IMG/VR virus record: IMGVR_UViG_3300020034_000006
Span: 1-64,000 of that record
Source of the DNA: a virus
Taxonomy: Duplodnaviria > Heunggongvirae > Uroviricota > Caudoviricetes
Length of the DNA: 64,000 nucleotides
Strand: one strand, 5' to 3'
The notes below the pieces were generated by a model. The model was not told where the DNA came from. It searched no databases and worked only from the letters and a program-made list of their open reading frames with translations. Both the position numbers and the translations under genes were made by a program. Shown piece after piece: positions 1 through 41,634 of this stretch (position 1 is the stretch's first letter; every line of letters begins with the position of its first letter).

Positions 1-417
1 GTCTGTACCCCCCGGGGGTACCCCGGAACCTTTCGCGGCCCCCTACCCTCTGACCTGGGCATTAGCATCAGGATACTCGGTATCGTCCATACCCTACCCA
101 GGTATGTGACCTCGGATCGATATACGGGGGTGGGGTATGTGCACCGTGAGCATGCGCTCGCTCTGCATAAGTATGCAAGCCATCGAATAATGAGAGTGAC
201 TATCAACTAGATGACCACACAAATATGAGACGATGACTCATCATGCTGTGTACCCCATGTTGTCACTACCTGTCACGTACACCCTGTCCCACCTACTGGG
301 CCCAGCCGCGAGGCTTAGAGCCTGGCCCTGGTCAGTCGAGCTAGTCACTGTACTGTGCCGAGCCGAGGCAACTAAGTAGTTGACTGCGCAACTAACAAGT
401 ACCCGGGCGCGCAAGTA

Positions 418-441
418 GGGCCGGCCCCGAAGGGCCGGCCC
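418..441. terminator. Perfect 10-bp GC hairpin (GGGCCGGCCC-cgaa-GGGCCGGCCC) downstream of the last leftward gene
   Basis: Inverted repeat read directly from the sequence. It lies just past the stop of the 505..1032 gene. No U-tract, as is common for actinobacterial intrinsic terminators. Confidence 0.4.
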
Positions 442-504
442 TACGTAGAAGGGGCTTAGCTCTCTTAGGGGTTAGCGCTTAGGGGAAAGCCCTAGCGCTT
501 GCGA

Positions 505-1032: not shown

Positions 1033-1110
1033 TTGGGTTTCATCCTTTGTTTCGGGGTCAAGCGCTTAACGGTGCGCTCGGGTACCGGAGATCCTAGCGC
1101 CTACTAGCGA

Positions 1111-5058: not shown

Positions 5059-5404
5059 CGGACTCCGGCCCGCCTTTCGCTAGTTTGTATCCCTCGTAAG
5101 CGTTCTCAAAGTTCGCGTGATCCCATCCGCGGTGATAGTCGGCACGCTCGCTCTTTGCGTAGAGAACGGCCGATGCTTTCTCGTCGTCTGTCATGAGCGG
5201 AGCATTGGCGAACATGTTGGCATCGGGATCAGGGTCAACTAGATCCCCGTCGTCAACCCATGAGTAGAAGTCGTCGTAGCCTTGCTGCCACGCCGCGGAC
5301 TGTTCATCGTAGGTAATGGTCACTTGTGGCACTCGCATTCGCACTTTGGCGCTTCCGGCCAATCGGTCGGGTTGGCGAGATGCGCATCGTATTTGGTGAC
5401 GCAC
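5051..5404 (-). CDS. Hypothetical protein (true start may be internal MRVPQV near 5338)
   Basis: 117-aa ORF. The N-terminus overlaps the upstream gene in another frame. Confidence 0.35.
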   Translation of the reverse strand: MRHQIRCASRQPDRLAGSAKVRMRVPQVTITYDEQSAAWQQGYDDFYSWVDDGDLVDPDPDANMFANAPLMTDDEKASAVLYAKSERADYHRGWDHANFENAYEGYKLAKGGPESDG

Positions 5405-11428: not shown

Positions 11429-11735
11429 GCGATCGCTCGATCACGCCTACCGCCCACGGGGCGATGGCCTCTCGCCATGTCGACGCATCGACTCCCTCGG
11501 TACACAGAGCCACCACGTTGAGCACGATCCACCACGCGTCGATGCCCTTCTCAAGACAGCTAGCGCAGTACGCCTCGCTCACGGGTTGTTGAAGCATGCA
11601 GTTGCAGACACCTATGGCGTCCTCGCCACAGCACGAGCACTTCAGTTCAAGTGCCACGTCACCCGTCCCGGTTAACCCGACAGAAGAAGGGCACCACGTA
11701 GAAGTAGCCAGGTTCGGCGACCTGCACCTGGCCAT
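11331..11735 (-). CDS. Hypothetical Cys-rich protein
   Basis: 134 aa with CSCCGEDAIGVCNC and CASC. Confidence 0.4.
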   Translation of the reverse strand: MARCRSPNLATSTWCPSSVGLTGTGDVALELKCSCCGEDAIGVCNCMLQQPVSEAYCASCLEKGIDAWWIVLNVVALCTEGVDASTWREAIAPWAVGVIERSLEFYKKTEEQMLSEVRAMENGASNEPGPTAEG

Positions 11736-12027
11736 CGTTTAGCAGCTCGATGAAGCGTCGGCGTTGTTCCATGCTGAGGTGCTGGAAGTAGAACTTGACG
11801 TGCCCAGGGCCGGCGTAGGCCTTGTAGTTCTTGTCGGTGGGCACTATCTCGGCCCCGCCCTCGACCAGCTCCATGAACAGCTCGGGCTTCATCGAGCCAC
11901 AGAACGAGCAGCGCGGTGCTGGGTCGCCGTGGAACTGGGCCCACTTGTCCTGGCCCTCGACGCGGTCCCAGTCCCCGATCTCTTCCATCCGCCGGGGACA
12001 GGACTGGCGCTTACGCTTCGATATCAT
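11659..12027 (-). CDS. Hypothetical Cys-rich protein
   Basis: 122 aa with CSFCGS. Confidence 0.4.
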   Translation of the reverse strand: MISKRKRQSCPRRMEEIGDWDRVEGQDKWAQFHGDPAPRCSFCGSMKPELFMELVEGGAEIVPTDKNYKAYAGPGHVKFYFQHLSMEQRRRFIELLNDGQVQVAEPGYFYVVPFFCRVNRDG

Positions 12028-12577
12028 ATCGAGACTCTACGCCCTGGCTGCGGCGCACACGAGCGATGTAGTCGGACCGTGTCTCTCCGCGGTTCTTGGC
12101 CCGTGACCAGCCCCGATTGTGAGTCGGACAGAAGCCGTCCTTGATCCGGTTCTCCTCCCCGCCTGGCATCCACAGGTTGCAGGCCACGCAGTGGCCCGAG
12201 CCCGGAACCCGGGCCTCCTCCTCAAGGATGCGCTGAGCCTCGCGACGCTTGGCCCTGCCCATGATGTCCTCGTACACCCCGTCGACCCGCGTGAGGCTCA
12301 GGTCGAGGCCGGTGAGGGCCTTGGTGAACGAGTCGTACAGGGTGCCCTTGCGCATCGAGCGAGTGCACGCCACCGTGCCAGTCTGGTCGTTGTAGCCGGG
12401 GTCCTCTGCGGAGTGGTCGTGGCCACCATGAGCCCGGTCAGAGCTGTAGTGACGTCCCCTCAGGGGGGACTGCTGTTCCTTCGCCACACTCAAGGCGGTG
12501 TCTCCACCGTCGATCAGCTTCTTGGCCACCGTGATCAGATGCCGAGCGATGTGCTTCGGCCGGGGTGCTTGTTGCAT
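12011..12577 (-). CDS. Hypothetical protein
   Basis: 188 aa. The CVACNLW...CPTHNRGW spacing could reflect a metal-binding nuclease-like site, but this is not established. Confidence 0.4.
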   Translation of the reverse strand: MQQAPRPKHIARHLITVAKKLIDGGDTALSVAKEQQSPLRGRHYSSDRAHGGHDHSAEDPGYNDQTGTVACTRSMRKGTLYDSFTKALTGLDLSLTRVDGVYEDIMGRAKRREAQRILEEEARVPGSGHCVACNLWMPGGEENRIKDGFCPTHNRGWSRAKNRGETRSDYIARVRRSQGVESRYDIEA

Positions 12578-13815: not shown

Positions 13816-14105
13816 GCGCTGCAATCCTTCATCACTCGTTGCTTCGCACGGCATATGTCGGCCTGGCCCAAGTAGAAGTGCTTGAGACACACGGGGAACT
13901 GGGCCTCGGACAGCTCTCGCGCTCGCCACCAATCCTCAGTGCCGTCGCTGCTTGCGCCGAGGTCTACCCAGCAGGTGTGAATGCCATCCTTGTGATGATG
14001 CACGATGACGTCACCGTCGGCACCGAGCTTGTATCCGGCTTCGCTCATGCACATGCGAAGCTTCTCCGCCATCGCCTCTGCCTCTTCGAGGGTGGCGTAG
14101 GTCAT
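13812..14105 (-). CDS. Hypothetical protein
   Basis: 97-aa ORF with a 4-nt overlap with the primase gene. Confidence 0.4.
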   Translation of the reverse strand: MTYATLEEAEAMAEKLRMCMSEAGYKLGADGDVIVHHHKDGIHTCWVDLGASSDGTEDWWRARELSEAQFPVCLKHFYLGQADICRAKQRVMKDCSA

Positions 14106-15874
14106 GCGTAGCTCCTGCGCAGCTCGAAGCGAATAGGGGAGTCCGACTCCTCACCCATTGCGTTCTGCACGCCGATGTTGAAATCGATTTGCCACTGGCT
14201 CCCGCCCCACTGGCGGGAGCCGAACTCGACATCGATGAAGAAGTCCCCGGTGTTGAGGTTCGCCGGTTCGCGTTCAGCGGTGAACATCCACGAGTCGACC
14301 CACTCACCCGAGCCCGCCATCGTGATGCGGTTCAGGCCCCTCGACTCCGCGCCCTTCTTGAAGTGGTTGACGATGAGCAGGTTGCTGCCGTGCTCGATGA
14401 ACGGAGCGGCCACTGCGGTGAGCAGTGCGCCCTCCTCGTGGATGTTGGCCGAGTTCGTCTCGGACCCGTGGTAGGCGTAGAACGGGTCAATGACCGTGAG
14501 CACCGGGTCTAGGTGTTCGAGGGCGTTCTCGATCGTTCCCTTGAACGCCGGGCTCAACAGCGGTGCTGTCTGGAACACCGAGTGGATAGGCACGTCACGG
14601 ATGTCACGGATGTCAACCGACTCGGCGATACGAGGCATGCGCCTCGTCCACGGAATGCGCCCACCCTCGCCGATGAACATCACCACGTTGCCTTGCTTCT
14701 CCACCGGGAACTGCCCGAGGAAGGGACTACCCGTCGCCACCGCCAGGGCGAGGTACTGGGACAGGTAGGTCTTCAAGGTTTTCTTCTCGCCTGCGATTTG
14801 ACCATAGGTCGGGATGCACACAACGTTGCGCACAAGCCAGTTCAACTTGAGGTCAGACGCCATCAGCTCTTGCATCGTCCACATGCGCAACCGTGGCTGC
14901 TCCATCGCCAGCACCTTCTCGACGTCATCCTCGTTCCCGCCGGCATCGAGGATGATCTGCTCGATGAAGGTTCGATCCTTGTCGCGCTCTTCGAGCCCGA
15001 CGCTGACGTTGGCCCTCACTCTTGTGCGTGCGCCTTCGAGCGCACGCCGGTACTCCCGCGTCGCCTTCACTGCGTCCGCCCGATCCCTCACAGCGCTCGT
15101 GAAGGCCATTTCGAGGCTCATCAGGGCCAGGGTCGCCCCGGCGTAGCCCAGCAGCTCGTGGCTGCACAGAGCGGCCACTGCGAGAGTCATGGAAGTGTGT
15201 CGGTCACCACGAGGGTCGAAGCTGTTGAAGGCCTCGGTCACCCGGGGGTGCCAGGCGTCCATGGGCTCAAGGCGAGCCTCAGGCGAAGCGTACGGATCAT
15301 CGAGCTTGGCCTCGGCCTCCGCTACCGCTGCGGTCCTGAGGCGTTGCATCACCCAGTCCGGCGCTTGGATCATTGCCGAGAAGTCATGGCCGTAGGCGTA
15401 GTAGTAGCCATCATTGTCTGGGGCCACCACATAGCCGGCGTCGCTGCGGACGTTGACTCCTTTGCAGAGATCATGGTTGCCGACGTGCTCCGAGCGATCG
15501 GGCTTGTTGAGGTAGATGTGAGAGCCACCGGATGGCGTGCGCACCATCGCCGTCCGCCCATCCCACAGTCCGCTCTTTGAGGAAGTAGCAGCGAAGCAAA
15601 CGGCTTCGAGGTTGTTGGGGCCGCTCACACCGCCCTTGACGTCAACATCGAGGACGATGTACCCAAGGCTCCCGGGCACCAGGCCAACCATCATCGTGTC
15701 CTCGTGCTCGAACCACCAGAGGTCGCGGGTCTCGCTTGAGGCGTCCTCGAACCCTCTCTTGACCAGGTGCGTGACCGGGCTCTTGTCGCCACGCAGGGGC
15801 AGCACCTTGCCTCCCATGACCATGAGGGACAGCGCTAGCTCACGAGGGATCATCGGGGTGGAACTCCCATGCAA
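14102..15874 (-). CDS. Bifunctional DNA primase/polymerase (PrimPol-like) domain protein
   Basis: The N-terminal region carries the acidic beta-strand motif GYIVLDVDVKGG and the surrounding pattern typical of the PrimPol N-terminal domain. 590 aa with a long C-terminal domain. No Walker A motif was recognised. Confidence 0.65.
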   Translation of the reverse strand: MHGSSTPMIPRELALSLMVMGGKVLPLRGDKSPVTHLVKRGFEDASSETRDLWWFEHEDTMMVGLVPGSLGYIVLDVDVKGGVSGPNNLEAVCFAATSSKSGLWDGRTAMVRTPSGGSHIYLNKPDRSEHVGNHDLCKGVNVRSDAGYVVAPDNDGYYYAYGHDFSAMIQAPDWVMQRLRTAAVAEAEAKLDDPYASPEARLEPMDAWHPRVTEAFNSFDPRGDRHTSMTLAVAALCSHELLGYAGATLALMSLEMAFTSAVRDRADAVKATREYRRALEGARTRVRANVSVGLEERDKDRTFIEQIILDAGGNEDDVEKVLAMEQPRLRMWTMQELMASDLKLNWLVRNVVCIPTYGQIAGEKKTLKTYLSQYLALAVATGSPFLGQFPVEKQGNVVMFIGEGGRIPWTRRMPRIAESVDIRDIRDVPIHSVFQTAPLLSPAFKGTIENALEHLDPVLTVIDPFYAYHGSETNSANIHEEGALLTAVAAPFIEHGSNLLIVNHFKKGAESRGLNRITMAGSGEWVDSWMFTAEREPANLNTGDFFIDVEFGSRQWGGSQWQIDFNIGVQNAMGEESDSPIRFELRRSYA

Positions 15875-20771: not shown

Positions 20772-21028
20772 TTCAGTTCGCCACTGATATAGAGAAGGTG
20801 TACGTCCTTCATCGCTTGGAGCAGGTCACCGGAGTCGAGGTAGTGCTTGGAGACAGCGATGCGCACAGGGTGAGCGTCTTGCGGGGAAACAACTGCCTTC
20901 AGCCGGCAGGCCTCTTCCTCGATCTCCATGTGCCGTTTGAACCCATCGAAGTGACTGCAAGCCAGGCTCGCTAACACCAGAGGCAAGCTGCTGATTTCAG
21001 ACCCCATGATCTGCCTCGACTTGGTCAC
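20768..21028 (-). CDS. Hypothetical small protein
   Basis: 86-aa ORF. Confidence 0.35.
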   Translation of the reverse strand: MTKSRQIMGSEISSLPLVLASLACSHFDGFKRHMEIEEEACRLKAVVSPQDAHPVRIAVSKHYLDSGDLLQAMKDVHLLYISGELK

Positions 21029-22379
21029 ACCACCCCTCGATCAAGTCGAGCTGGATGTTGGTGAGGCCGCCCTCGGTCAGCGTCGGCATGTTGCGCGGCC
21101 AGAGGGCAAGCAGCGCTTGCTTGGCGGGAGGGTCCTGCACGATGGAGGAGACCCGCTCGCGCAGGCCCTCTTCGCGATCGGCCGAAGGAGTCGGGACAGC
21201 GTCAGCGGTGATCTCAGTGAAGAGGTGCTTGCCCCTTCCCGAGCGGAGCTGACGCACTTCCATCGACTGGTTCAGGATGCGCCAACCTTCAGCGATGTTG
21301 ACCTTGTAGAGCTTTGGCTCTTCGTCGGTCTCTGCCGGCAACCACATCACGAGAGCGATCTCTCGGTTGAATGGCGGCAAGGGCAGCCACTTCTTGGCCT
21401 GCCTGTCCCAGACGTACTCCCCGTTGGCGTAGCCGGCGAGCTGCTGGGCGATCTTGACCTTGGCGTAGTCGAGCGAGCCGGTTTTGAGGTCGTAGATGAT
21501 CCGTTCCCGCGAGTGGGGCCACTCGGCCCCACGGTCTGTCGATCCGCAGAGACCAAGATCGGGCAGGCAGACAATCGCCTCGATCAGCTCCGGAGGGAAC
21601 TTCAACTGATGCTGAGCGACCGCCGTCTTGTAGCGAATGATCCGGTCACGGTGCTCGGGTGGGATGCGTACTCCGACGTCACCGCGGTCGACCTTCTGTG
21701 TCAGCTTGTGCAGCGTCGTCCCGATGTTCGCCTTGCGGGTAGCAGCGGCCCGCTGCTCGGCCTGTTTGATCACATCGTTGAGCGTGTCCTTGTCGTCAGC
21801 GTTCTCTGCTGACATGGCAAGGTTGACGAGGTCGGGGCTGATGGCGAGTCCATAGGCCACCATCCGCGACTTGTAATCAATGAGGCCGTACTTGTCTTCG
21901 AGAGCGTCCGCCGCTGTCGTCATCCGAGTCCAGTGCATCAACTTGCCGGTGATCGGATGCGGCAGTTCGTAGCGGTTCCATCTGTCTACGGGGATGTTCA
22001 CATCAACATTCCAAGGGTCCTTGAGATCAGCGGGTTCGAGATAAAGACTTGTGTTGCAGTCCTGGCAGGGACGCTCCTTGGTGGCTGGCCATTGCCACCC
22101 ACACGAGGGGCACCGGCAGCTACGGCAGGCGTTCGGGGGCGCGCCTAAGCCGTCCCACTGCCAAGCGCAGCGCTTACACGTTGGGATGTTGTGACGCGGA
22201 TTGACGCAGGCGTCCTGGTTCACGCACTCGGTAGTACCGATAGTGAACTGACACCAGGGCGTGCCATCGGGCGCGTAGGCGCGCTGATCCAATGGTCCTG
22301 GTCGTTTGGCTAGCTCTTCCTCTGCTCGCTGTATCCCGCGAGCCTCAGGGCTCGTGGTTGAAGAGGTAGAGCGGTCCAT
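20997..22379 (-). CDS. RecB/Cas4-family PD-(D/E)XK exonuclease with an N-terminal Cys cluster
   Basis: RIIYDLKTG is the (D/E)xK motif and QLAGYANGEY the QxxxY motif. The N-terminus (CKRCAWQW...CRSCRCPSCGWQW...CQDC) is a zinc-binding region. Confidence 0.65.
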   Translation of the reverse strand: MDRSTSSTTSPEARGIQRAEEELAKRPGPLDQRAYAPDGTPWCQFTIGTTECVNQDACVNPRHNIPTCKRCAWQWDGLGAPPNACRSCRCPSCGWQWPATKERPCQDCNTSLYLEPADLKDPWNVDVNIPVDRWNRYELPHPITGKLMHWTRMTTAADALEDKYGLIDYKSRMVAYGLAISPDLVNLAMSAENADDKDTLNDVIKQAEQRAAATRKANIGTTLHKLTQKVDRGDVGVRIPPEHRDRIIRYKTAVAQHQLKFPPELIEAIVCLPDLGLCGSTDRGAEWPHSRERIIYDLKTGSLDYAKVKIAQQLAGYANGEYVWDRQAKKWLPLPPFNREIALVMWLPAETDEEPKLYKVNIAEGWRILNQSMEVRQLRSGRGKHLFTEITADAVPTPSADREEGLRERVSSIVQDPPAKQALLALWPRNMPTLTEGGLTNIQLDLIEGWCDQVEADHGV

Positions 22380-22724: not shown

Positions 22725-23216
22725 TCATCGCCTCACCTTCTCGTGTGAGCGAAGTGATCCCCGAGCACGCCCCGCAGCGTCTCGGACACGCCGGTAAACA
22801 ACAGGGTCACGATCGCCGTTGCAGATGGTGTCCTTGAGTACTCGTGCTTCTCCGATAAGCTGGTCGAGGGAGGCCAACGCCTCCTTCTTGGTCACGACCC
22901 GCTGGGAATGCGTCTGGGTCCTGAACCGAGGTCTGTTCCTCTTCTGGATCGGAGCGATTTGAGACCGCAGCGCCGCGTACGTCATCCCGAGCACCTTGGC
23001 GTTCCAGCGCATGAGAACCTTGGTGACCAGGGTTCTGTCATCCATGCAGCGCAGGACGCGGCCGTCGGGCATCTCCATCGAGACATGCGAGCCGGTCTGC
23101 CTGACGAACCGAGCCCCGTACTCGCGCTCGAAGTAGCGGCGCAGCTCGGCTCCGGTGAACGGCTCGACCCCGTCGCTCACGACCCCACCTTGAACAGGCG
23201 GAACCAGCCACCACAT
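22725..23216 (-). CDS. HicA-fold (YcfA-family, mRNA-interferase-like) domain protein with a basic C-terminal extension
   Basis: ELRRYFEREYGARFVRQTGSHVSMEMPDGRVLRCMDDRTLVTKVLMRWNAKVLGM matches the HicA pattern (G-f-x-v-RQ-GSH ... dl-x-g-tl-x-IlkqAGl). About 70 extra C-terminal residues are rich in R/K. First gene of the leftward operon, divergent from the repressor. Confidence 0.5.
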   Translation of the reverse strand: MWWLVPPVQGGVVSDGVEPFTGAELRRYFEREYGARFVRQTGSHVSMEMPDGRVLRCMDDRTLVTKVLMRWNAKVLGMTYAALRSQIAPIQKRNRPRFRTQTHSQRVVTKKEALASLDQLIGEARVLKDTICNGDRDPVVYRRVRDAAGRARGSLRSHEKVRR

Positions 23217-23415
23217 CCCTTGTGGCGGCCGTCCTCGATCGGCAGGTACGTCGTGGGACCTCTAGGAGTGAGGCGCGCTGTACCTGTTGCCTTGCAACGC
23301 CTGCATTGGGCGAGCAGGGACGCGGTGGGAACTCCCCCGGAGCCACGGGGTCGGCGGCGACGCACAGACGGCACTGCTGTTCCCCTCCTCCCAGGTTCGG
23401 TCTCATCGGTACGAT

Positions 23416-23430
23416 GCGATACCGTATCAT
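23416..23430. promoter_or_regulatory. Operator copy a (GCGATACCGTATCAT)
   Basis: 12-bp core CGATACCGTATC (GATAC-N-GTATC inverted repeat) in the divergent HicA-like/repressor intergenic region. Confidence 0.5.
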
Positions 23431-23520
23431 GGCGATTTTCCCTGGTCAAACGCTACGGCCACGGTATGCGGTCGATGTTTTGGCGGAGAGAACGGTGACA
23501 TCGGGCTCGTTGCAAAGCTC

Positions 23521-23537
23521 GATGCGATACCGTATGT
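23521..23537. promoter_or_regulatory. Operator copy b (GATGCGATACCGTATGT), 12 nt upstream of the repressor ATG
   Basis: Same core with one substitution. It shares the extended GATGCGATACCGTAT with copy a. Confidence 0.5.
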
Positions 23538-23548
23538 TGGATCACGAT

Positions 23549-23977
23549 ATGACCATCTCTGAAATGGAGTCCGCGGCAATGACGCTCGACCCGACGCTCG
23601 ACCCGAGTGCTCGCATTACTCAGCGCGGCTTGGAGCTGTCGGAAGCACTAGGCGCGCTTATCGCCGAAGAGCGCAGGGCGCGCAAGTGGAGTCAGACAGA
23701 ACTAGCCGACAAGCTCGGCATGCGTCAGTCCACCCTCGCCACCTACGAGAGTGGAAGCCGTCAGCTCGGGCATCTGCACGTGCACATCATCGAGGCGCTT
23801 GGTGTCGCCTTGGAGATGCCACGGGGCTCGATCCTGGAACGGCTCGGCTTGGTCGAACGCGACATCGACTTCATCACCTTCGTGATGTCTCGACCAGAGC
23901 TGGACAAACGCATGCAGATGGCGTTCTGCGATCTCTACGTGCTCTTCACGGAGAAGGGCGAGTTGCCAGAGGGCTAG
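23549..23977 (+). CDS. XRE-family HTH transcriptional regulator, candidate immunity repressor
   Basis: HTH segment RKWSQTELADKLGMRQSTLATYESGSR. The ATG at 23549 is in frame with the 23222 ORF and lies immediately after operator b. 142 aa. Confidence 0.65.
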   Translation: MTISEMESAAMTLDPTLDPSARITQRGLELSEALGALIAEERRARKWSQTELADKLGMRQSTLATYESGSRQLGHLHVHIIEALGVALEMPRGSILERLGLVERDIDFITFVMSRPELDKRMQMAFCDLYVLFTEKGELPEG

Positions 23978-24128: not shown

Positions 24129-24377
24129 TCAAGGCAGGAACACGTCCACCATGGACATGAGGTTGCCGGCTTGACGGAAGAGCGAGAAAGCCCTCCGCAT
24201 CATCTCGTTCTGGGAGCGCAGGTTCTCGACGTGCTCTTCGAGCATGCCAACGCGTATGCCCTCCGCTTTCAATAGCAGTTCGAGCGCGTCGACACGCTCG
24301 GCGAGTTCCAGTTCGTCCGCCGCCATCGCCTCTGGGGCGGGGGCGTGTCGTACATCATTGTCCACCACGGCCACCAT
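24129..24377 (-). CDS. Hypothetical small coiled-coil protein
   Basis: 82-aa ORF. Plausible but weak RBS. Confidence 0.3.
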   Translation of the reverse strand: MVAVVDNDVRHAPAPEAMAADELELAERVDALELLLKAEGIRVGMLEEHVENLRSQNEMMRRAFSLFRQAGNLMSMVDVFLP

Positions 24378-24532
24378 CTTCGGTCCACCCTCAGGTCAAG
24401 ATCAGGTTTCCCCCAGGTGGCTCAGTCTGCCAGCGGCCATTCTAAGAGTCAAGCGATTGCGATGACGAACGTTCTCCCAGCTCAGGGCACAAGTTACCCG
24501 GTGGTTGCAAGAGCCCCGGCTATTACGATACG

Positions 24533-24937
24533 GTGTCGCTCGTGAGCGCTGCTCGGTCGCCTCTAGGTGAGGCCATCCGCTGGGCCTACCAGCAGGCCGG
24601 CCTGAAGCAGAGTGATGTGGCCAAGGCCCTGCACGTCCATCAGACGATGGTCTCGCAGTGGACGGTCGGCAGGGTCGAGCCGAGCCTCGATCAGATCCGC
24701 CTAATCGAGCAATTCTGCCGAGTCCAGATCGGAGCAGTCCTCGCTCGGGCTGGCTACATCTCCGTCGAGGCAGCCCTCGATCACGTCAAGGAGGTCTTCC
24801 GCGCTGGCAGTGTCGTCCCCGATCTCAGCCGCCAGGATGTTCGCGAGATCATGAACCTCGCCCTCCCCGAACACACCAAACTGAACCTCGTCGCCCACCT
24901 GCAAGGCGATAAGGATCTGACCCAGGCTGTCGGGTAG
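24533..24937 (+). CDS. XRE-family HTH DNA-binding protein
   Basis: LKQSDVAKALHVHQTMVSQWTVGRVEPSLDQIRLIEQF is a canonical HTH_XRE pattern. 134 aa. Confidence 0.6.
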   Translation: MSLVSAARSPLGEAIRWAYQQAGLKQSDVAKALHVHQTMVSQWTVGRVEPSLDQIRLIEQFCRVQIGAVLARAGYISVEAALDHVKEVFRAGSVVPDLSRQDVREIMNLALPEHTKLNLVAHLQGDKDLTQAVG

Positions 24938-25492
24938 GGGTGCTGTCGTAGGGGGCGCGGTCGTAGTAGGCTGCGTCGCAGTTACCGGAGGCCGCGTGGG
25001 TGTGGCAGTCGGGGGAGCCTTCGCCGGGGGCTCCCCCGCTCCGGTCAGAGAGGTCGTAGTCGGCAGTGTGGGGGGTGTCGTGGTTGTTGGCGCGGTCGTG
25101 GCCACAGCAGAAGCGGTAGGCGGGCTCGGCCGGGGCTCGGAGCTGTCGGGCCAGTCGTTGACCACAGCGGCCGAGCCGATGAGCGCCAGGGCCACGACGA
25201 CCCCGGTGATCCGCCTGTCTCGCCCAGCCTGGTTGGCGACCCAGCGAGCGGCAGGAACGACGTACACGGTCCGATCCCGAGGCTCGACCTCGGAGAGGAT
25301 GCGCTTGGCCTCGGTGGCCGCGCCAACCTCGGCATCGAGCACGTCGAGCGCCGACAGCACCCGCTCTTCGAGGGCCTGGACATCCCGAGCCGCCGCTTCG
25401 GCGGCTCGCATCGCCCGCGCAGCTATGAGGGCCGCCACAACCGCCACAGTGACCGCAACTACCACGGCGAGTGAAGCTACTACGTGCAGCAT
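24701..25492 (-). CDS. Membrane protein with a Pro/Thr-rich low-complexity region (the 3' 240 nt overlap the convergent HTH gene and may be a non-coding readthrough of the ORF)
   Basis: N-terminal TM LHVVASLAVVVAVTVAVVAALIAA, a coiled segment, a second hydrophobic stretch, then PT-repeats. The antisense frames here look like junk. Confidence 0.4.
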   Translation of the reverse strand: MLHVVASLAVVVAVTVAVVAALIAARAMRAAEAAARDVQALEERVLSALDVLDAEVGAATEAKRILSEVEPRDRTVYVVPAARWVANQAGRDRRITGVVVALALIGSAAVVNDWPDSSEPRPSPPTASAVATTAPTTTTPPTLPTTTSLTGAGEPPAKAPPTATPTRPPVTATQPTTTAPPTTAPLPDSLGQILIALQVGDEVQFGVFGEGEVHDLANILAAEIGDDTASAEDLLDVIEGCLDGDVASPSEDCSDLDSAELLD

Positions 25493-25770
25493 CGGTGGGC
25501 TAGGTGTCGGTCGAATGCCTCGCACCGCTTCTCGCAGGCGCAGCCCGTTCGGAACTCACAGGCGTGGAACGGACCGTTCCAGCCTTCGAGCGGCTTGCAC
25601 GTGCTGCACGGGTGGAGGCCAATGCCGGGCATGGCGATCGCCGCCTCGATGTCGGTCCGATCCTTGTTCTCGGCCCACCGCCAGGGCGTGGCCTTGGAGC
25701 GCAGTTGCGGGCACTCAGCCTTGTGGATCGTTCCCGCGCCCTTGCCCGAGCGGACTAGACGAGTCTCCAT
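25480..25770 (-). CDS. Hypothetical Cys-rich protein
   Basis: 96 aa with CPQLRS...CSTCKPLEGW...CEFRTGCACEKRC. Confidence 0.35.
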   Translation of the reverse strand: METRLVRSGKGAGTIHKAECPQLRSKATPWRWAENKDRTDIEAAIAMPGIGLHPCSTCKPLEGWNGPFHACEFRTGCACEKRCEAFDRHLAHRCCT

Positions 25771-26075
25771 TACGTGTGATTCCTTGAATCGTTGGCGTGC
25801 AAGAACGCACCGGCCAATCCGATATCAACGAGCTGTTCCCACATGCGAATCGCCGTAGACCTGTAAGGGCAATTCGGGCTGTGATCAAGATGCTCGAACA
25901 GCCCTACGAGCATCGCGTCGGCGACCTGCTCTTGGTGGAGTGGACAGAAGCCGGCCCTCGCCGTCATGGAGATCTTGGCGCGCATCTTGATGGCCACCTG
26001 ATCGCCGTCAGAGGCGGCCGGGCTCAGGGCCCGGAACATCGTCGCTGCTCGGCTCTGTCTCACCGCTGTCTCCAT
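25770..26075 (-). CDS. Hypothetical protein
   Basis: 101-aa ORF. Operator copy c lies about 20 nt upstream of its start. Confidence 0.4.
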   Translation of the reverse strand: METAVRQSRAATMFRALSPAASDGDQVAIKMRAKISMTARAGFCPLHQEQVADAMLVGLFEHLDHSPNCPYRSTAIRMWEQLVDIGLAGAFLHANDSRNHT

Positions 26076-26091: not shown

Positions 26092-26103
26092 TCGATACCG
26101 TAT
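26092..26103. promoter_or_regulatory. Operator copy c (GGCTCGATACCGTATCACGGCG)
   Basis: Same 12-bp core. It shares the upstream CGGCTCGATAC with copy d and sits in a divergent promoter region. Confidence 0.5.
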
Positions 26104-26281
26104 CACGGCGTCGATCGGAGTGTCCGGTGGACTATCGAGCCCCTGGACAGGCGGCAAGGACGGCCGGTACTCTGGCGCTCGTGCGAGCGGAGGTTTTACT
26201 CGCCGACCGAAGCTCGCTATTTACCGGGGGCCGTGGGTTCGCCCACGGCCCCCTCGCCTTTCCTCCCCGCGAAGGAAGCCG

Positions 26282-26449
26282 ATGCAGGCCCCGCCCTCTC
26301 AAGCTCCCAGCATGCCGAACCCTGACGCGGTGCCCGCTCCGTACCTGGGGTTCATCGTGGTGGCCCTCGGCGTCGTCACGGCTCTCCTGGGGCTCTTGTA
26401 CGTGTGTTGGCTGGTTCGAGAGCGTCTTGACCGTCATCGCGAAAGCTGA
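26282..26449 (+). CDS. Small membrane protein (55 aa)
   Basis: Internal start of ORF 26120..26449 with RBS GAAGGAAG. Hydrophobic LGFIVVALGVVTALLGLLYVCWLV. Confidence 0.35.
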   Translation: MQAPPSQAPSMPNPDAVPAPYLGFIVVALGVVTALLGLLYVCWLVRERLDRHRES

Positions 26450-26741
26450 TAGACCATCGAACAAGCGATACTGAACGAGCCGCCCTCCTGATCCCTGTTC
26501 CATTGGGGCGAGCTTCCGCTGCTGCCTTCCGCCGATCGTTAGTCAGCGAATGCCACTGGTAACGGCTCAATCGGATCGCCCACCAGGAGATGCCCCGCCT
26601 GAGCGGGGCATCTCCGCGTTCTCCCCTTGTCAAGTCGGGAACTGTGTGGCACGCTGAAAGTTGCGAAAACCTGCACGGTGCGCCCTGGGCACCGCGGGCA
26701 CGGCACCCAGGGCCTGTCGGACCTATTAGGAGGTCGACAGT

Positions 26742-27665: not shown

Positions 27666-27738
27666 GCGTTTTGGGGCCCTCGTAGCTCAGGGGACAGAGC
27701 GGTCGCCTCCTAAGCGACAGGCCGCAGGTTCGAGTCCT
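27666..27738 (+). tRNA. tRNA-Arg (anticodon CCU, reads AGG)
   Basis: Hand-folded cloverleaf. Acceptor GCCCTCG/CGAGGGC, D-arm GCTC-AGGGGACA-GAGC, anticodon stem GTCGC/GCGAC with loop CTCCTAA, T-arm GCAGG-TTCGAGT-CCTGC, discriminator G. No encoded CCA. Confidence 0.8.
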
Positions 27739-27782
27739 GCCGAGGGCGCTGTGACAATTGTCTTGCCTCTCGGCGGACGGCT

Positions 27783-27795
27783 CGATACGGTATCG
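27783..27795. promoter_or_regulatory. Operator copy d (CGATACGGTATCG, perfect 6-N-6 palindrome), 5 nt upstream of the GTG at 27800
   Basis: Opposite orientation to copies a-c. It shares the GGCTCGATAC flank with copy c. Confidence 0.5.
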
Positions 27796-27799
27796 CATC

Positions 27800-28534
27800 G
27801 TGACGAGACTCAACCAGCTCCTAGGCGTCGAAGCCGGCGTCCGAGACCGCGCTGAACAGGCCCTCGCCGCTGCCAGGTCGGACGTCACCAAGGACGGTCC
27901 CCTCAGCGGCCTCGCTCGCAAGTACGAGCCCCGACAGGAGGGCGGCGAGCAGGTGCCGCCTCAGAGCACGCAGGTGCAGTTGACGGTGAACCACATCACC
28001 GATCAGCTTGCCAAGCACCTCAGCCGCCTGTGGGACGTCACAGCGACGAAGGACTTGACCAACACCGAGGCCAGGGCCGACATCGTCGTTGAGGGCCGCA
28101 CCCTGGTTCCCCAGGTTCCCGCCAGCTACCTGGTGTGGTTCGAGAAGCAGCTCACAGCGCTGCGAGGCGTGCTGGCCAAGCTGCCGGTGCTCGACCCTGC
28201 CGAGATCTGGACCTACGATGAGGCGACCGGGGTCTACCGCACGGAGCCGACGGTCAGCATCCGCCCCAAGAAGGTCTTCAAGAACCACGTCATCGCCGAA
28301 GCGACCCAGTACCACCCCGCCCAGGTGCAGGTCTACAGCATCGATGAGCCCGAGGGTGAGTGGACGACCACCAAGTTCTCCGGCGCCATCTTCGCGACCC
28401 GTCGCCGGCTCCTGGTCGAGCGGATTGACACGCTCATCGAGGCTGTCGCTTTCGCAAGAGGAGAGGCCAACGGGACCACGGTGACTGACCTCGAAGTCGG
28501 TGCCGCGGTGTTCGATTACCTCTTCGCCACCTAG
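27800..28534 (+). CDS. Hypothetical protein (operator-controlled, between the two tRNA genes)
   Basis: 245 aa from the in-frame GTG at 27800. The ORF track's ATG at 27758 would place the operator inside the coding sequence. No recognised motif. Confidence 0.5.
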   Translation: MTRLNQLLGVEAGVRDRAEQALAAARSDVTKDGPLSGLARKYEPRQEGGEQVPPQSTQVQLTVNHITDQLAKHLSRLWDVTATKDLTNTEARADIVVEGRTLVPQVPASYLVWFEKQLTALRGVLAKLPVLDPAEIWTYDEATGVYRTEPTVSIRPKKVFKNHVIAEATQYHPAQVQVYSIDEPEGEWTTTKFSGAIFATRRRLLVERIDTLIEAVAFARGEANGTTVTDLEVGAAVFDYLFAT

Positions 28535-28779
28535 ATCTCCCGAAAGGGAGCGGAGCAAAAGTTGAAGTTGAAGCTGAAGCTAACCTGGCCAACAAATCAG
28601 GTCGGTGAAGCTAAGACTCTCGCTCCTAAGCTAAAGCTCAAGCTAAACCTTCGGATAGAGCGCAGATCAAACCACCGCAATGCGGGTTCGATTCCCGTTC
28701 CGGCCTCCACATGGCTGGATGGTCCAATGGCAAGACTCGGTGGCTCATAACGAGCCTGTGCTCATACGTCCGAACCTAG

Positions 28780-28853
28780 TGTGATGTAGCTCAGTTGGAT
28801 AGAGCACTCGCCTTCTAAGCGAGAAGTCACGGGTTCGACTCCCGTCATCTTCA
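28780..28853 (+). tRNA. tRNA-Arg (anticodon UCU, reads AGA)
   Basis: Canonical D-arm TAGCTCAGTTGGATAGAGCA, anticodon stem CTCGC/GCGAG with loop CTTCTAA, T-arm ACGGG-TTCGACT-CCCGT. The acceptor stem shows two mismatches (positions 1-72 and 3-70) as read, hence the reduced confidence. Confidence 0.55.
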
Positions 28854-33392: not shown

Positions 33393-34919
33393 ATGGCTGA
33401 TCTCATCGGTTTCAAGAGGGTGTCCCGCATGGGTAACCGGGACAAGGACGACGACGACTTTCGCTCGGATCAGGAGCAGGAAGACTCGGGCGAGGCCTAT
33501 GCGAAGGCCAACGGCCACCGCATCCTCTACTGGATCGATGAGACCAACTCCGTCTCAGGCAAGACGCTCGATCGCAAGGGCCTGCAAGAGGGCCTGGGGG
33601 ACATCTACGCCGGCAATGCGGACGGCGCCATCGTCATGAAGATGAGTCGCTTCGGGCGTGACGCCGTCGCCGCCATCTCCGAGATCCGCAAGCTAAAGGA
33701 CGCCGGGAAGATCTTCATCGCCGTCAAGGACGGCATCGACACCACCAACGACAGCATCGCCACCCGCATCCTGATGTGGTTCATCGCCACCATGGATGAG
33801 TGGTTCCTCGAAGACATCACCAAGAACTGGGACGACATCACCCGTATCCGGGTGATGGTCGACGGCATCAACACCACCGAGCCCTACGGCTACCGCAAGG
33901 ACCAGATCTTCGATGACCACGGCAAGCGCGTCGGCGGTACCCGCCTCCTGGTGCCCGTGGCGGAGGAGGCTGAGTGGGTCGTCAAGATGTTCAAGAAGCG
34001 CAAGCTCAAGATGTCGTGGCAGAAGATCGCCGACTACCTGAACGAAGAGGGCGTCCGCACCCGGGCGGGGAAGCACTGGACTCACAACAGCGTCAGCGGC
34101 GTCGTCAGCTGCCGCACCTACCTCGGTGAGGTGCGCTCGGGCGACTACGTCAAGGAAGGGGCCCACGATGCGATCGTGGGCCTGGCCCTGTGGACCGCGG
34201 CGAACGCCCACCAGCACACCAACCCTCGCTTCGAGAATATGGACTACCCGCTGTCGGGCATCATTCGCTGCTCGTCCTGCGGAGTGAAGATGGTGGGCCG
34301 CACCAACCGTAAGGCCAACAAGACCTACCGCTACTACGACTGCCGACGTAAGCACGGCTTCGGCAAGTGCCCCAACCCCATGCGGGTGCGGGCAGACATC
34401 GTAGAGGCGGAGATCGACTCGATATTTGTCGAGCGGTTCATCAACGCCTGCTGTGACGTTACGGCCGAGGGCAGCACCACCGGCGTCGACCTAGAGGCCG
34501 CTGTGTTGGTCCTAGAGGACGCCGACGCCGACCTGCACGACTTCCTCACGTCGGAGACCACGGCGGAGCTGAGGCGGGAGCTGGGCCAGAAATACGTGAA
34601 CGAGGGGACGCGGGCTCGCATGGATCGCGTCAAGGTGGCCCGCAAGGCCGTCACCGAGGCGCAGAACGCCATGCTCGGCGTCGAGCTGCCCGAGAACCTG
34701 GCCGAGATCTGGGAGACGCTGGGAGCCCAGGAGCGCCACGTCTTCCTAGACGCTGCCTTCGCCATCATCGCCGCCCACCCCGGCAACGTCGTTAGCTTCT
34801 GGACCGTCAACGAGCCCGGCACCCCCGATGGCCTCCCTACCAGGGGCTTTGAGGTCAGTGAGGCGACACCGATCCCGATGCGTAATGCGCCAGCGGGTGC
34901 CCGGGTGACGACGGGCTAG
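33393..34919 (+). CDS. Large serine recombinase (serine integrase)
   Basis: Resolvase-like N-terminal domain with catalytic-Ser motif FKRVSRMG and VMKMSRFGRD. Recombinase domain. Zinc ribbon CSSCGVKMVGRTN...YYDCRRKHGFGKC. Long coiled-coil C-terminal region. Confidence 0.85.
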   Translation: MADLIGFKRVSRMGNRDKDDDDFRSDQEQEDSGEAYAKANGHRILYWIDETNSVSGKTLDRKGLQEGLGDIYAGNADGAIVMKMSRFGRDAVAAISEIRKLKDAGKIFIAVKDGIDTTNDSIATRILMWFIATMDEWFLEDITKNWDDITRIRVMVDGINTTEPYGYRKDQIFDDHGKRVGGTRLLVPVAEEAEWVVKMFKKRKLKMSWQKIADYLNEEGVRTRAGKHWTHNSVSGVVSCRTYLGEVRSGDYVKEGAHDAIVGLALWTAANAHQHTNPRFENMDYPLSGIIRCSSCGVKMVGRTNRKANKTYRYYDCRRKHGFGKCPNPMRVRADIVEAEIDSIFVERFINACCDVTAEGSTTGVDLEAAVLVLEDADADLHDFLTSETTAELRRELGQKYVNEGTRARMDRVKVARKAVTEAQNAMLGVELPENLAEIWETLGAQERHVFLDAAFAIIAAHPGNVVSFWTVNEPGTPDGLPTRGFEVSEATPIPMRNAPAGARVTTG

Positions 34920-38006: not shown

Positions 38007-38423
38007 TCAACCCCCAGCTCCGTTCCCGGACTCGCTGACTTCGATGGGCGCCGGCACGAGCACGGTCTCGCCCGAGTGGGAGTGGCTGCCGTTCGTCGCC
38101 CGGCGTATCACGGCGCCTGTGTAGTGCCGGTGGATCGCTTCTTGGAGATCGTCTTGCAGGCCGCTGAAGGCGGCCAGCAAGTCGTCGCGTTCCTCCCTCA
38201 GGGAGGCGATCTCGCCGTCCTTGACCTCGACAGCGACACGCATCGCCTCGAACCGCCGCTCCCACTCCAACAGCAGGCGCTCTAGATCTTCCGCCTCGGG
38301 GCTCAGTGCCCCGTAGTCGCGGCGGAGGATCTTCCGCACTTCTGCGACTCGCCTCTGCTCGTCGTCCGCCTCGGTCAACTCCACCTCCCCCGGGTCCGCC
38401 TCATCGTCTCGATGCGATATCAC
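38007..38423 (-). CDS. Hypothetical acidic coiled-coil protein (start may be downstream of the GTG overlapping the promoter-like motif)
   Basis: 138-aa ORF. Confidence 0.4.
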   Translation of the reverse strand: MISHRDDEADPGEVELTEADDEQRRVAEVRKILRRDYGALSPEAEDLERLLLEWERRFEAMRVAVEVKDGEIASLREERDDLLAAFSGLQDDLQEAIHRHYTGAVIRRATNGSHSHSGETVLVPAPIEVSESGNGAGG

Positions 38424-38468
38424 ACCGCGCGACCGTAGCAGCCCCTCCCGCTCGGGGGAAGGGGCTGC
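38415..38468 (-). promoter_or_regulatory. Terminator-promoter module: imperfect hairpin GCAGCCCCTCCC...GGGAAGGGGCTGC, then CGCGCGGTGTGATATCG (minus sense)
   Basis: The 17-mer is nearly identical to the copy at 41600-41616 and resembles an extended -10 (TGnGATAT). Confidence 0.4.
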
Positions 38469-38478
38469 TACTTGCCTT

Positions 38479-41117: not shown

Positions 41118-41516
41118 CTAGTCGCCAAAGTGGGGCTTCCACGTGTCAGGGAAACTGCAATTGCCAGGCGCCCCTATGAACATCGGGGCGATCTCACTAG
41201 GCGCATAGCCGGCGAATCCACAACCGATCGAGGTCACGAAGAACCTCGTGCTGAGCACTCGGAGCCTGGCGAAGACAATGAAGCCGCTCACCCATGGCCT
41301 GATCTCGGCGAGAGTGAGCGGCGTGCGGACGTCGCGGTCCTTGGTGGGGATGGCGTAGGCCTGGCCCCTGAGACCGCTGTTCACGAACATGGGGAACCCG
41401 TACTCAGAGCAGGCGACCCGGGCCGCTCCTGCGCCGTGGCGCCCGGCCAGGTTGCTGCCGAACACGAAGATCTCTCCATGCTGGGGCAGCGTGCCATCCC
41501 TGTGGTACGTCCTCAT
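41118..41516 (-). CDS. Hypothetical protein, possible Rossmann-like (SLOG/DprA-like) nucleotide-binding fold
   Basis: GEIFVFGSNLAGRHGAGAARVA...GQAYAIPTKD glycine-rich pattern. Assignment is tentative. Confidence 0.4.
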   Translation of the reverse strand: MRTYHRDGTLPQHGEIFVFGSNLAGRHGAGAARVACSEYGFPMFVNSGLRGQAYAIPTKDRDVRTPLTLAEIRPWVSGFIVFARLRVLSTRFFVTSIGCGFAGYAPSEIAPMFIGAPGNCSFPDTWKPHFGD

Positions 41517-41544: not shown

Positions 41545-41616
41545 AGAGCCCTCGGCCCGGGGGGAGAGGCCGAGGGCTCTGGGTCCCGTCAATGCGGTAC
41601 GATATCACACCGCACG
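41545..41616 (-). promoter_or_regulatory. Terminator-promoter module: 13-bp hairpin AGAGCCCTCGGCC...GGCCGAGGGCTCT, then CGTGCGGTGTGATATCG (minus sense), 84 nt upstream of the 41516 start
   Basis: Read directly from the sequence and paired with the copy at 38415-38468. Confidence 0.45.
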
Positions 41617-41634
41617 CCAGGGTCAAGCCGCTGA

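Follow-up and report, generated by a model that had tools for sequence, protein, structure and literature searches.

The region between the gene for an HTH protein (23549..23977) and the divergent, leftward early operon of a phage contains two short palindromes that recur elsewhere in the same DNA, and the question is whether these palindromes are operators of one regulator or only parts of the promoters with which they coincide. The region lies in a 64 kb stretch of DNA (the window), which has a G + C content of 62% and is phage throughout. On the minus strand, tail genes, a lysin-like gene, and a tape measure gene (60992..63931) occupy the part between 64 kb and about 41.8 kb, and an exonuclease gene (20997..22379), a primase/polymerase gene (14102..15874), and an FtsK-like gene are found between 23.4 kb and 0.5 kb; a serine integrase gene (33393..34919, PHROG 95 at 2e-68) is located on the plus strand. 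This layout is typical of a temperate siphovirus, and the regulatory region is central, at about 23–28 kb. Because the relatives of the exonuclease, with identities of at most 34%, are all found in phages of Actinobacteria, the host is probably an actinobacterium.

The lineage of this phage is sparsely sampled and has no cultured relative. A DNA search of the region from 21 to 29 kb against cultured phage genomes yielded no near match, and the distant matches were confined to tRNAs and the gene of the DUF7873 family. Scanning of genome contigs did not reveal any relative, a search of viral contigs with the 16-mer TTTTCCCTGGTCAAAC resulted in 49 matches, all of them unrelated, and scans of viral and metagenome sequences returned only an 89-kb viral contig (loci L005, L007, L010, and L068), the proteins of which are 49–67% identical to those of the window. 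The other relatives are L001 (5.3 kb), L004 (1.8 kb), the near-identical fragment L002/L003, and L065 and L066, which share one sample. All of them are syntenic with the window wherever they overlap it. The comparisons described below are based on five metagenomic relatives, most of which are short contigs and which are not independent of the window.

The original prediction described four copies of a palindrome with the core GATAC-N-GTATC. The recurrence is real: in the window, GATACNGTATC has three exact matches (23418, 26094, and 27784) versus 0.03 expected, CGATACCGTATC with at most one mismatch is found at five distinct places versus 0.13 expected, and an unbiased repeat finder ranks the palindrome family first. 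All four copies listed originally belong to the family, but the total was too low, as there is a fifth strong site, and about three to four weaker sites can be added. The strong sites start at 23417 (a), 23525 (b), 24526 (e), 26093 (c), and 27783 (d). Copy c is located at 26093..26104/5 instead of 26092..26103, and copy b does not contain the exact 12-mer core, from which it deviates by one mismatch (two with respect to the 13-mer). The five strong copies (strict form CGATAC-N-GTATCG) are all intergenic and span no more than 4.4 kb (23.4–27.8 kb). A position weight matrix (PWM) built from them gives scores of 17.6–22.3 bits for the sites themselves and 12.2 bits for the next best sequence in the 64 kb. 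The arms that are constant in the relatives were used to draw a relaxed family consensus, YGATA-N3-TATCR, which has 8 hits in the window when one mismatch is allowed, versus 1.83 expected, a count that was reached by none of 100 shuffles. The sites c2, f, g, h, and 12019 come from this relaxed pattern, for which about two chance hits are expected. The family is thus likely to consist of the five strong copies and about three to four weaker ones, extending to 41.6 kb; the relatives lengthen the consensus to CCGTGATA-N3-TATCACGG. Apart from the copy at 12019, all sites are found in the regulatory third of the phage, and the 40 kb of structural and replication genes have none. One site is present per promoter, sites a and b are 108 bp apart, and a search for tandem operators yielded no extra site above 2.3 bits within 45 bp of any copy.

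The similarity between the copies extends into their flanks. The flank TATCGCATCG is common to a, b, d, and h, TATCGAGCC is common to c, c2, and d, and the a and d sites match at 21 of 23 nt. The shared flanks of a/b and of c/d that had been noticed originally are therefore real, and d also bears the a/b flank on its other side. However, the two affinity classes that had been deduced from them do not hold up, because the flank types swap at orthologous sites in the relatives: the d site of L005 has GAGCC where the window has CATCG, and the a site of L001 has AAGCC.

Site a (23417..23429, minus strand, leftward reading TGATACGGTATCG) is contained in the predicted leftward promoter Pa, which is composed of a −35 box TTGACC (23449..23444), a 17-nt spacer, and a −10 hexamer TACGGT (23426..23421). 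The −35 box and the palindrome are kept in L001, L002, L004, L005, and L065. The first target of Pa is a conserved zinc-ribbon gene of 65 aa (23177..23374, minus strand, CxxC...HxxC), followed by the leftward early operon, which indeed carries exonuclease and primase genes and diverges from the HTH gene as originally described. The divergent region had been given as 23217..23548; its part from 23375 to 23548 is intergenic, but the remainder belongs to the zinc-ribbon gene. This gene has a GTG start preceded by a strong ribosome-binding site, GGGAGGAGGGG, and the next gene (22725..23183) starts with a GTG that overlaps the stop codon of the zinc-ribbon gene. The differences at codon positions 1/2/3 are 2/2/26 in comparison with L001 and 9/7/21 over 45 codons in comparison with L005; on the contigs of the relatives, the gene callers left the gene uncalled. 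On the other side of the intergenic region, site b (23525..23537, plus strand, CGATACCGTATGT) is part of the predicted promoter Pb (TTGCAA 23510..23515, 17 nt, TATGTT 23533..23538, plus strand), which would drive the HTH gene with its ATG at 23549. Site b is out of register with the other copies and covers the Pb spacer and the first bases of the −10 hexamer. Both boxes of Pb are conserved in six loci, and the palindrome of the relatives has either degenerated or is displaced by 5 bp.

The other three strong sites are also found at predicted promoters. Site e (24526..24538, plus strand, CGATACGGTGTCG), which the original prediction did not list, is located in front of the gene for a second HTH protein, within promoter Pe (TTGCAA 24505..24510, 18 nt, TACGGT 24529..24534, plus strand), which is followed after 7 nt by the GTG at 24542. 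L001 and L005 keep both promoter boxes as well as the 7 nt between the −10 hexamer and the start codon. Site c (26093..26105, minus strand) has the same leftward reading as site a, TGATACGGTATCG, and is contained in the leftward promoter Pc (weaker −35 box cGGACA 26126..26121, 18 nt, −10 hexamer 26102..26097), which would drive the leftward genes 25770..26075 and 25480..25770. It lies inside a 21-nt block, CGGCTCGATACCGTATCACGG, that is identical in L005 despite diverged flanks. A weak, degenerate member of the family, c2 (26125..26137, CGGTGGACTATCG), is situated 32 bp from c, and its orthologue in L005, TGATGACGTATCA, 30 bp from c. Site d (27783..27795, plus strand) is the perfect palindrome CGATACGGTATCG and belongs to promoter Pd (TTGCCT 27763..27768, 17 nt, TACGGT 27786..27791, plus strand), followed after 8 nt by the GTG at 27800. 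Downstream of Pd are the DUF7873 gene and a rightward block of which the integrase gene is the last. The Pfam match of the DUF7873 protein begins at profile position 1, which supports the GTG at 27800 as the start codon. In L005, CGGTACGGTATCG precedes the ATG of the DUF7873 gene by 4 nt, although the DNA further upstream is unrelated.

The weaker sites are more dispersed. Site f (26447..26459, plus strand, TGATAGACCATCG) overlaps the stop codon of a gene for a 55-aa membrane protein (26282..26449) and is associated with TTGACC (26427..26432), a spacer of 17 nt, and TAGACC (26450..26455); its orthologue in L007, gCCGTGATAGACCATCACGGc, has perfect 8 + 8 arms with TTGATC 17 nt upstream. Site h (38410..38422, minus strand, leftward reading TGATATCGCATCG) lacks a TANNNT hexamer and is located directly past a terminator-like hairpin (38437..38469) and directly before the gene 38007..38423; the L068 orthologue, TGATGCGGTATCA, occupies the equivalent intergenic gap. 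Site g (41595..41607, minus strand, leftward reading TGATATCGTACCG) lies upstream of the gene 41118..41516, at a predicted minus-strand promoter with the −35 box TTGACC (41626..41621), a spacer of 16 nt, and the −10 hexamer TATCGT (41604..41599). Its orthologues are TGATACCATACCG in L068 and cCGTGATAGGTTATCACGc, with perfect 7 + 7 arms, in L066. The gene 41118..41516 (minus strand) encodes a 132-aa protein of a very widespread phage family, named ‘A1S_2505 family phage non-structural protein’ in one source, with more than 7,900 protein matches at E ≤ 0.001, some of them from proteobacterial phages. Directly downstream of site g and upstream of this gene, a GC-rich hairpin (41545..41580, minus strand) is kept in three phages (L068, about 5305..5340; L066, about 1041..1078); it could be a late-operon terminator, an attenuator, or a small RNA.

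Two further palindromes are of lesser weight. The 12019 variant (12019..12031) is a perfect palindrome, CGATATCATATCG, that fits the relaxed consensus, is located in a gene junction of the early operon, and includes the ATG of 11659..12027 (minus strand). An orthologous copy was sought in the relative and was not found, and the 12019 copy may be due to chance. The element GATAC-TCG-GTATC, which had been regarded as related to the family, is present, but at 72..84 in the non-coding left end rather than at 76..88, and it was rejected as a member on account of its 3-nt spacer. The first 500 nt of the window (1..500) are non-coding and of mixed composition and contain, in addition to this element, the near-palindrome GTACCCCCCGGGGGTAC (5..21) and several short repeats; they may represent a genome end or a packaging region.

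In a, c, d, e, f, and g, palindrome positions 4–9 are the −10 hexamer (TACGGT in a, c, d, and e), a −35 box is found 16–18 nt before the hexamer, and in most copies a gene start follows closely downstream. With both strands considered, the window has just 16 occurrences of the combination TTGNNN-N16-19-TANNNT, and the sites a, b, e, and d account for 4 of them. A TTGNNN box, a spacer of 16–18 nt, and a TANNNT hexamer, as in sigma-A-type promoters, are present at a, b, d, e, and g; deviations are seen at c, which has cGGACA, and at f, which has TAGACC. The upstream TG is compatible with an extended −10 element. The predicted sigma-A-type promoters are presumably active. An E. coli-type promoter scanner did not pick them up, because TACGGT fits TATAAT at only three of six positions. 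The start codon follows the −10 hexamer after 7–9 nt at site e in three phages, at site d in two phages, and at site c in L005. This distance leaves no space for a ribosome-binding site and implies leaderless mRNAs; the transcripts of the second HTH gene (24542) and of the DUF7873 gene (27800) would thus be leaderless. Not every promoter of the region carries the palindrome. The gene for an 82-aa protein between the two HTH genes (24129..24377) has an element of its own, TTGACT-17-CAGACT (24378..24470, minus strand), which is conserved in three phages and is devoid of the palindrome, so that the motif is not merely the promoter consensus of the phage. Expression of the 82-aa gene may be independent of the proposed repressor.

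The relatives make it possible to compare the palindromes with their surroundings. Sites a, c, and d are found at the same places in the relatives. Between the window and the 89-kb relative, 55 of the 65 positions of the 13-mers are identical (85%), versus 234 of 439 other intergenic columns (53%; Fisher 8e-7), and 30 of the 36 positions of the 13-mers outside of the −10 hexamer are identical (p = 3.9e-4). At b and e, the −35 and −10 boxes are kept in the relatives and the palindromes have decayed. Across 24 aligned sites, the arms carry 0.95–1.97 bits per position and the central 3 nt carry 0.23–0.26 bits. Among 20 promoter-oriented sites counted by hand, C at position 12 is found in 19, and the −7 T of the −10 hexamer in 17. 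Perfect arms of 7–8 bp (CCGTGATA...TATCACGG) are present in the a site of L065, the f site of L007, and the g site of L066. Site h lacks TANNNT in both phages, and f reads TAGACC in both. The b site of L065 lies wholly within the Pb spacer, yet 13 of its 14 positions equal those of the L065 a site. The palindromes are thus operator-like, as had been proposed: they are located at promoters, are conserved in relatives, and are as symmetric as operators should be.

The favored explanation is that the palindromes are putative operators for one dimeric, phage-encoded DNA-binding protein, to which we assign a probability of about 0.6. The overlap of palindrome and −10 hexamer, which was not part of the original prediction, confounds promoter and operator signals, and because of it the promoter alone accounts for some of the conservation. 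It is conceivable, although doubtful, that the copies are duplicated cassettes of an extended −10 element (TGnTAnnnT) and a conserved discriminator that serve the host RNA polymerase without any dedicated protein, in which case the palindromy would be a by-product of TAC-N-GTA. The constant register of the hexamer at positions 4–9 in six copies and the −35 box 16–18 nt upstream are in line with such cassettes, as is the near-identity of the a and d sites, and the similarity that runs past the palindrome in four and three copies, respectively, suggests that cassettes have been copied. However, positions 10–12 (ATC), which mirror positions 2–4, are conserved approximately like the −10 hexamer, and the perfect arms in the relatives likewise exceed what a promoter would need to keep. 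Sites h and f and the b site of L065 retain the arms without a usable −10 hexamer, b is out of register with the −10 hexamer of Pb, and other conserved promoters of the region lack the motif. Because of the arm information, the perfect arms, the palindromes without a usable −10 hexamer, and the conserved promoter without the motif, the evidence together favors, with reasonable though not high confidence, a site for a dimeric protein over a bare promoter motif. A chance repeat, or a host-wide repeat without a role in phage regulation, is a negligible alternative: the scans of genome contigs returned no relative, which leaves some room for it, but the observed counts were never reached by shuffles, with the exception of 12019, sites occur in no part of the phage other than its regulatory third, and the orthologous promoters in five phage contigs keep them.

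If the sites are operators, the best-placed repressor candidate is the product of 23549..23977 (plus strand; HTH#1), a 142-aa protein of the XRE family. Its assignment as an HTH protein was confirmed by profile matches to HTH_31 (4.8e-9, 36.8 bits, cut-off 27) and HTH_3 (1.6e-8, 34.9 bits, cut-off 23). The PHROG matches are transcriptional repressors, and weak similarities to Stl/Orf20 and to the N-terminal domain of lambda repressor were observed; the score against Phage_CI_repr (19 bits) is under the cut-off of 22. The profile search revealed no domain besides the HTH families and, in particular, no S24 autocleavage/dimerization domain, so that induction would not use LexA-like autocleavage. 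A scan of the window for actinobacterial LexA boxes yielded 13 hits versus 3.5 expected, none of them perfect, and did not contribute anything usable. The AlphaFold model of HTH#1 is poor (pLDDT 55). M58-x-Q60-S61 of the recognition helix is the same in all homologues, two of which have G or Q instead of R59. A covariation of this helix (R59G, P0006) with the operator of L065 was considered and discarded, as the arms are unchanged and the center alone differs. The second candidate, HTH#2 (24542..24937, plus strand), is a 131-aa XRE-family protein (HTH_3, 2.9e-10, 40.5 bits) with homologues in L001 and L005 that are 64–66% identical. A 274-codon open reading frame with a Pro/Thr-rich tail (24701..25525, minus strand) overlaps the 3′ end of the HTH#2 gene by about 237 nt and has a similar counterpart in L005; both its status as a gene and its extent are tentative. 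The 89-kb relative has a third regulator near its integrase gene, with HTH_31 and a BldD-like C-terminal domain (L068 11113..11601), of which no counterpart was found among the open reading frames of the window scanned from 35 to 41 kb.

HTH#1, the gene of which points away from the early operon with sites a and b in between, is the most likely candidate for the binder of the palindromes, and it is position alone that sets it apart as a candidate from HTH#2, the zinc-ribbon protein, and a host factor. The motif being tied to HTH#1 by position only, it is rather unlikely, yet worth consideration, that the operators are real but are bound by HTH#2, by the zinc-ribbon protein (23177..23374) acting in a Cro-like manner, or by a host regulator. 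HTH#2 is also of the XRE type and its own promoter bears a palindrome, and the zinc-ribbon gene heads the early operon, the usual place of Cro-like genes. By comparison, HTH#1 occupies the classic position of a repressor, divergent across two sites, and two weaker arguments point in the same direction: its recognition helix is mostly constant in the homologues, as are sites a, c, and d, whereas that of HTH#2 has changed in L005 (VHQTMVSQW versus VQQSAVSDW) while c and d are unchanged there. It is highly improbable that the promoters with the palindrome form a phage-specific class turned on in early or middle infection by an activator, a sigma-like protein, or an appropriator protein. Nearly all non-structural promoters bear the palindrome, and the weak −35 or −10 elements at c, f, and h might need help; however, a site centered on the −10 region normally blocks the polymerase, the spacers of 16–18 nt differ from the 19–20 nt typical for MerR-type activation, and no sigma-like or MotA-like protein was found among the scanned proteins. 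More unusual arrangements are unlikely, be it a self-contained cassette of promoter and operator (about 17 bp, symmetric, with an extended −10 element on either strand) that has been copied to at least eight units, several of them leaderless, and is given its direction by the −35 box alone, or an element through which a phage factor switches on, instead of off, promoters of a phage-specific class. Most likely, this new phage lineage controls lysogeny in an ordinary way.

With HTH#1 as the repressor, regulation could be envisaged as follows, where we infer protein binding, the identity of the binder, and the direction of regulation from the DNA. Each operator would be embedded in the −10 region of a sigma-A-type promoter, and the bound dimer would span roughly −16 to −4 and thereby exclude RNA polymerase. 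The promoters covered in this way would be Pa of the early replication operon, Pb and Pe in front of the two HTH regulator genes, Pc of the leftward three-gene unit, and Pd of the block from the DUF7873 gene to the integrase gene, and three further units (at f, g, and h) would probably be covered as well, so that a single repressor would silence most of the non-structural transcription in a lysogen. The strong, conserved sites a, c, and d would be tightly shut, and the weaker sites b and e in front of the regulator genes would allow negative autoregulation. The split into strong, conserved sites (a, c, and d) and weaker, fast-evolving sites (b and e) is better supported than the classes deduced from the flanks. 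The regulatory map that the analysis provides for this phage lineage comprises about eight promoters, two or three candidate regulators, and a single operator consensus. Its confirmation would contribute a further example of single-repressor, multi-promoter immunity in actinobacteriophages and would offer a compact set of repressor, operator, and leaderless promoter that is usable as a genetic tool in high-GC hosts; the understanding of lysogeny control is unchanged by it.

A literature search did not find the motif as an operator, but only primer-like matches. The nearest documented parallel appears to be gp33 of phage BPs, which binds copies of the 12-bp palindrome 5′-CGACATATGTCG in five regions with four promoters, where each palindrome makes up only one half of a full site and has a degenerate partner at a distance of 5 or 8 bp; BPs has integration-dependent immunity, with attP inside the repressor gene and an adjacent tyrosine integrase (PMC4557955). 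Both are actinobacteriophages (this one probably) with a small HTH repressor (here a candidate) and a short palindrome, of 12 bp in BPs and 13 bp here, in scattered small intergenic regions, and in both the early lytic promoter and additional promoters are controlled, or are proposed to be. In contrast to BPs, there is no partner within 45 bp here, with the exception of c2 at 32 bp, the integrase is a serine integrase and its gene is not adjacent but 9.4 kb from the HTH#1 gene with about 15 genes in between, and the proteins and sites have no sequence similarity. The description of the locus as a lambdoid-style network was partly appropriate. As with CI and Cro of lambda, the candidate repressor gene is divergent from an early operon, the operators overlap both promoters (Pa and Pb) and have a palindromic sequence suited to an HTH dimer, and a second outward promoter (Pd here, PL in lambda) points toward the integrase gene. 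However, single sites are found here instead of three tandem operators per promoter, the S24 autocleavage domain is absent, the early operon is headed by a zinc-ribbon gene and not by an HTH Cro gene, and at least eight sites are dispersed instead of forming two clusters. On balance, the architecture seems closer to BPs than to lambda.

Two other kinds of actinophage immunity have features in common with the arrangement proposed here. The Streptomyces phage phiC31 is a temperate actinophage with a serine integrase, the repressor c of which is thought to bind many copies of a conserved inverted repeat of about 17 bp that are placed between the genes of the early region, in several cases at promoters; its early promoters are not sigma-A-like. 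The serine integrase, the temperate actinophage lifestyle, and one repressor (proposed here) for many intergenic inverted repeats are shared with phiC31, whereas the repeat sequence and the repressor family differ and the palindrome described here carries a sigma-A-type −10 hexamer. In the cluster A mycobacteriophages (L5 gp71, TipsytheTRex), one repressor acts on stoperators that are spread through the genome; these are asymmetric, have a length of 13–14 bp, are bound by a monomer, are oriented in the direction of transcription, lie inside transcribed regions, and stop elongation. Many sites across the genome and, as proposed here, one repressor are again common to both, but the sites of this phage are symmetric and are located at promoters, with 12019 and h as possible exceptions.

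That the palindrome travels with the DUF7873 gene was considered and rejected, since the palindrome is absent upstream of the DUF7873 gene in Arthrobacter phage Racecar (L008) and Gordonia phage GodonK (L009). In the window, a tRNA-Arg gene is found on either side of the DUF7873 gene (27800..28534; whole arrangement 27676..28853), and its homologues in these two unrelated, large lytic actinophages are also located within tRNA arrays. This recurrent embedding among tRNA genes in unrelated actinophages suggests that the DUF7873 family has a tRNA-related function.
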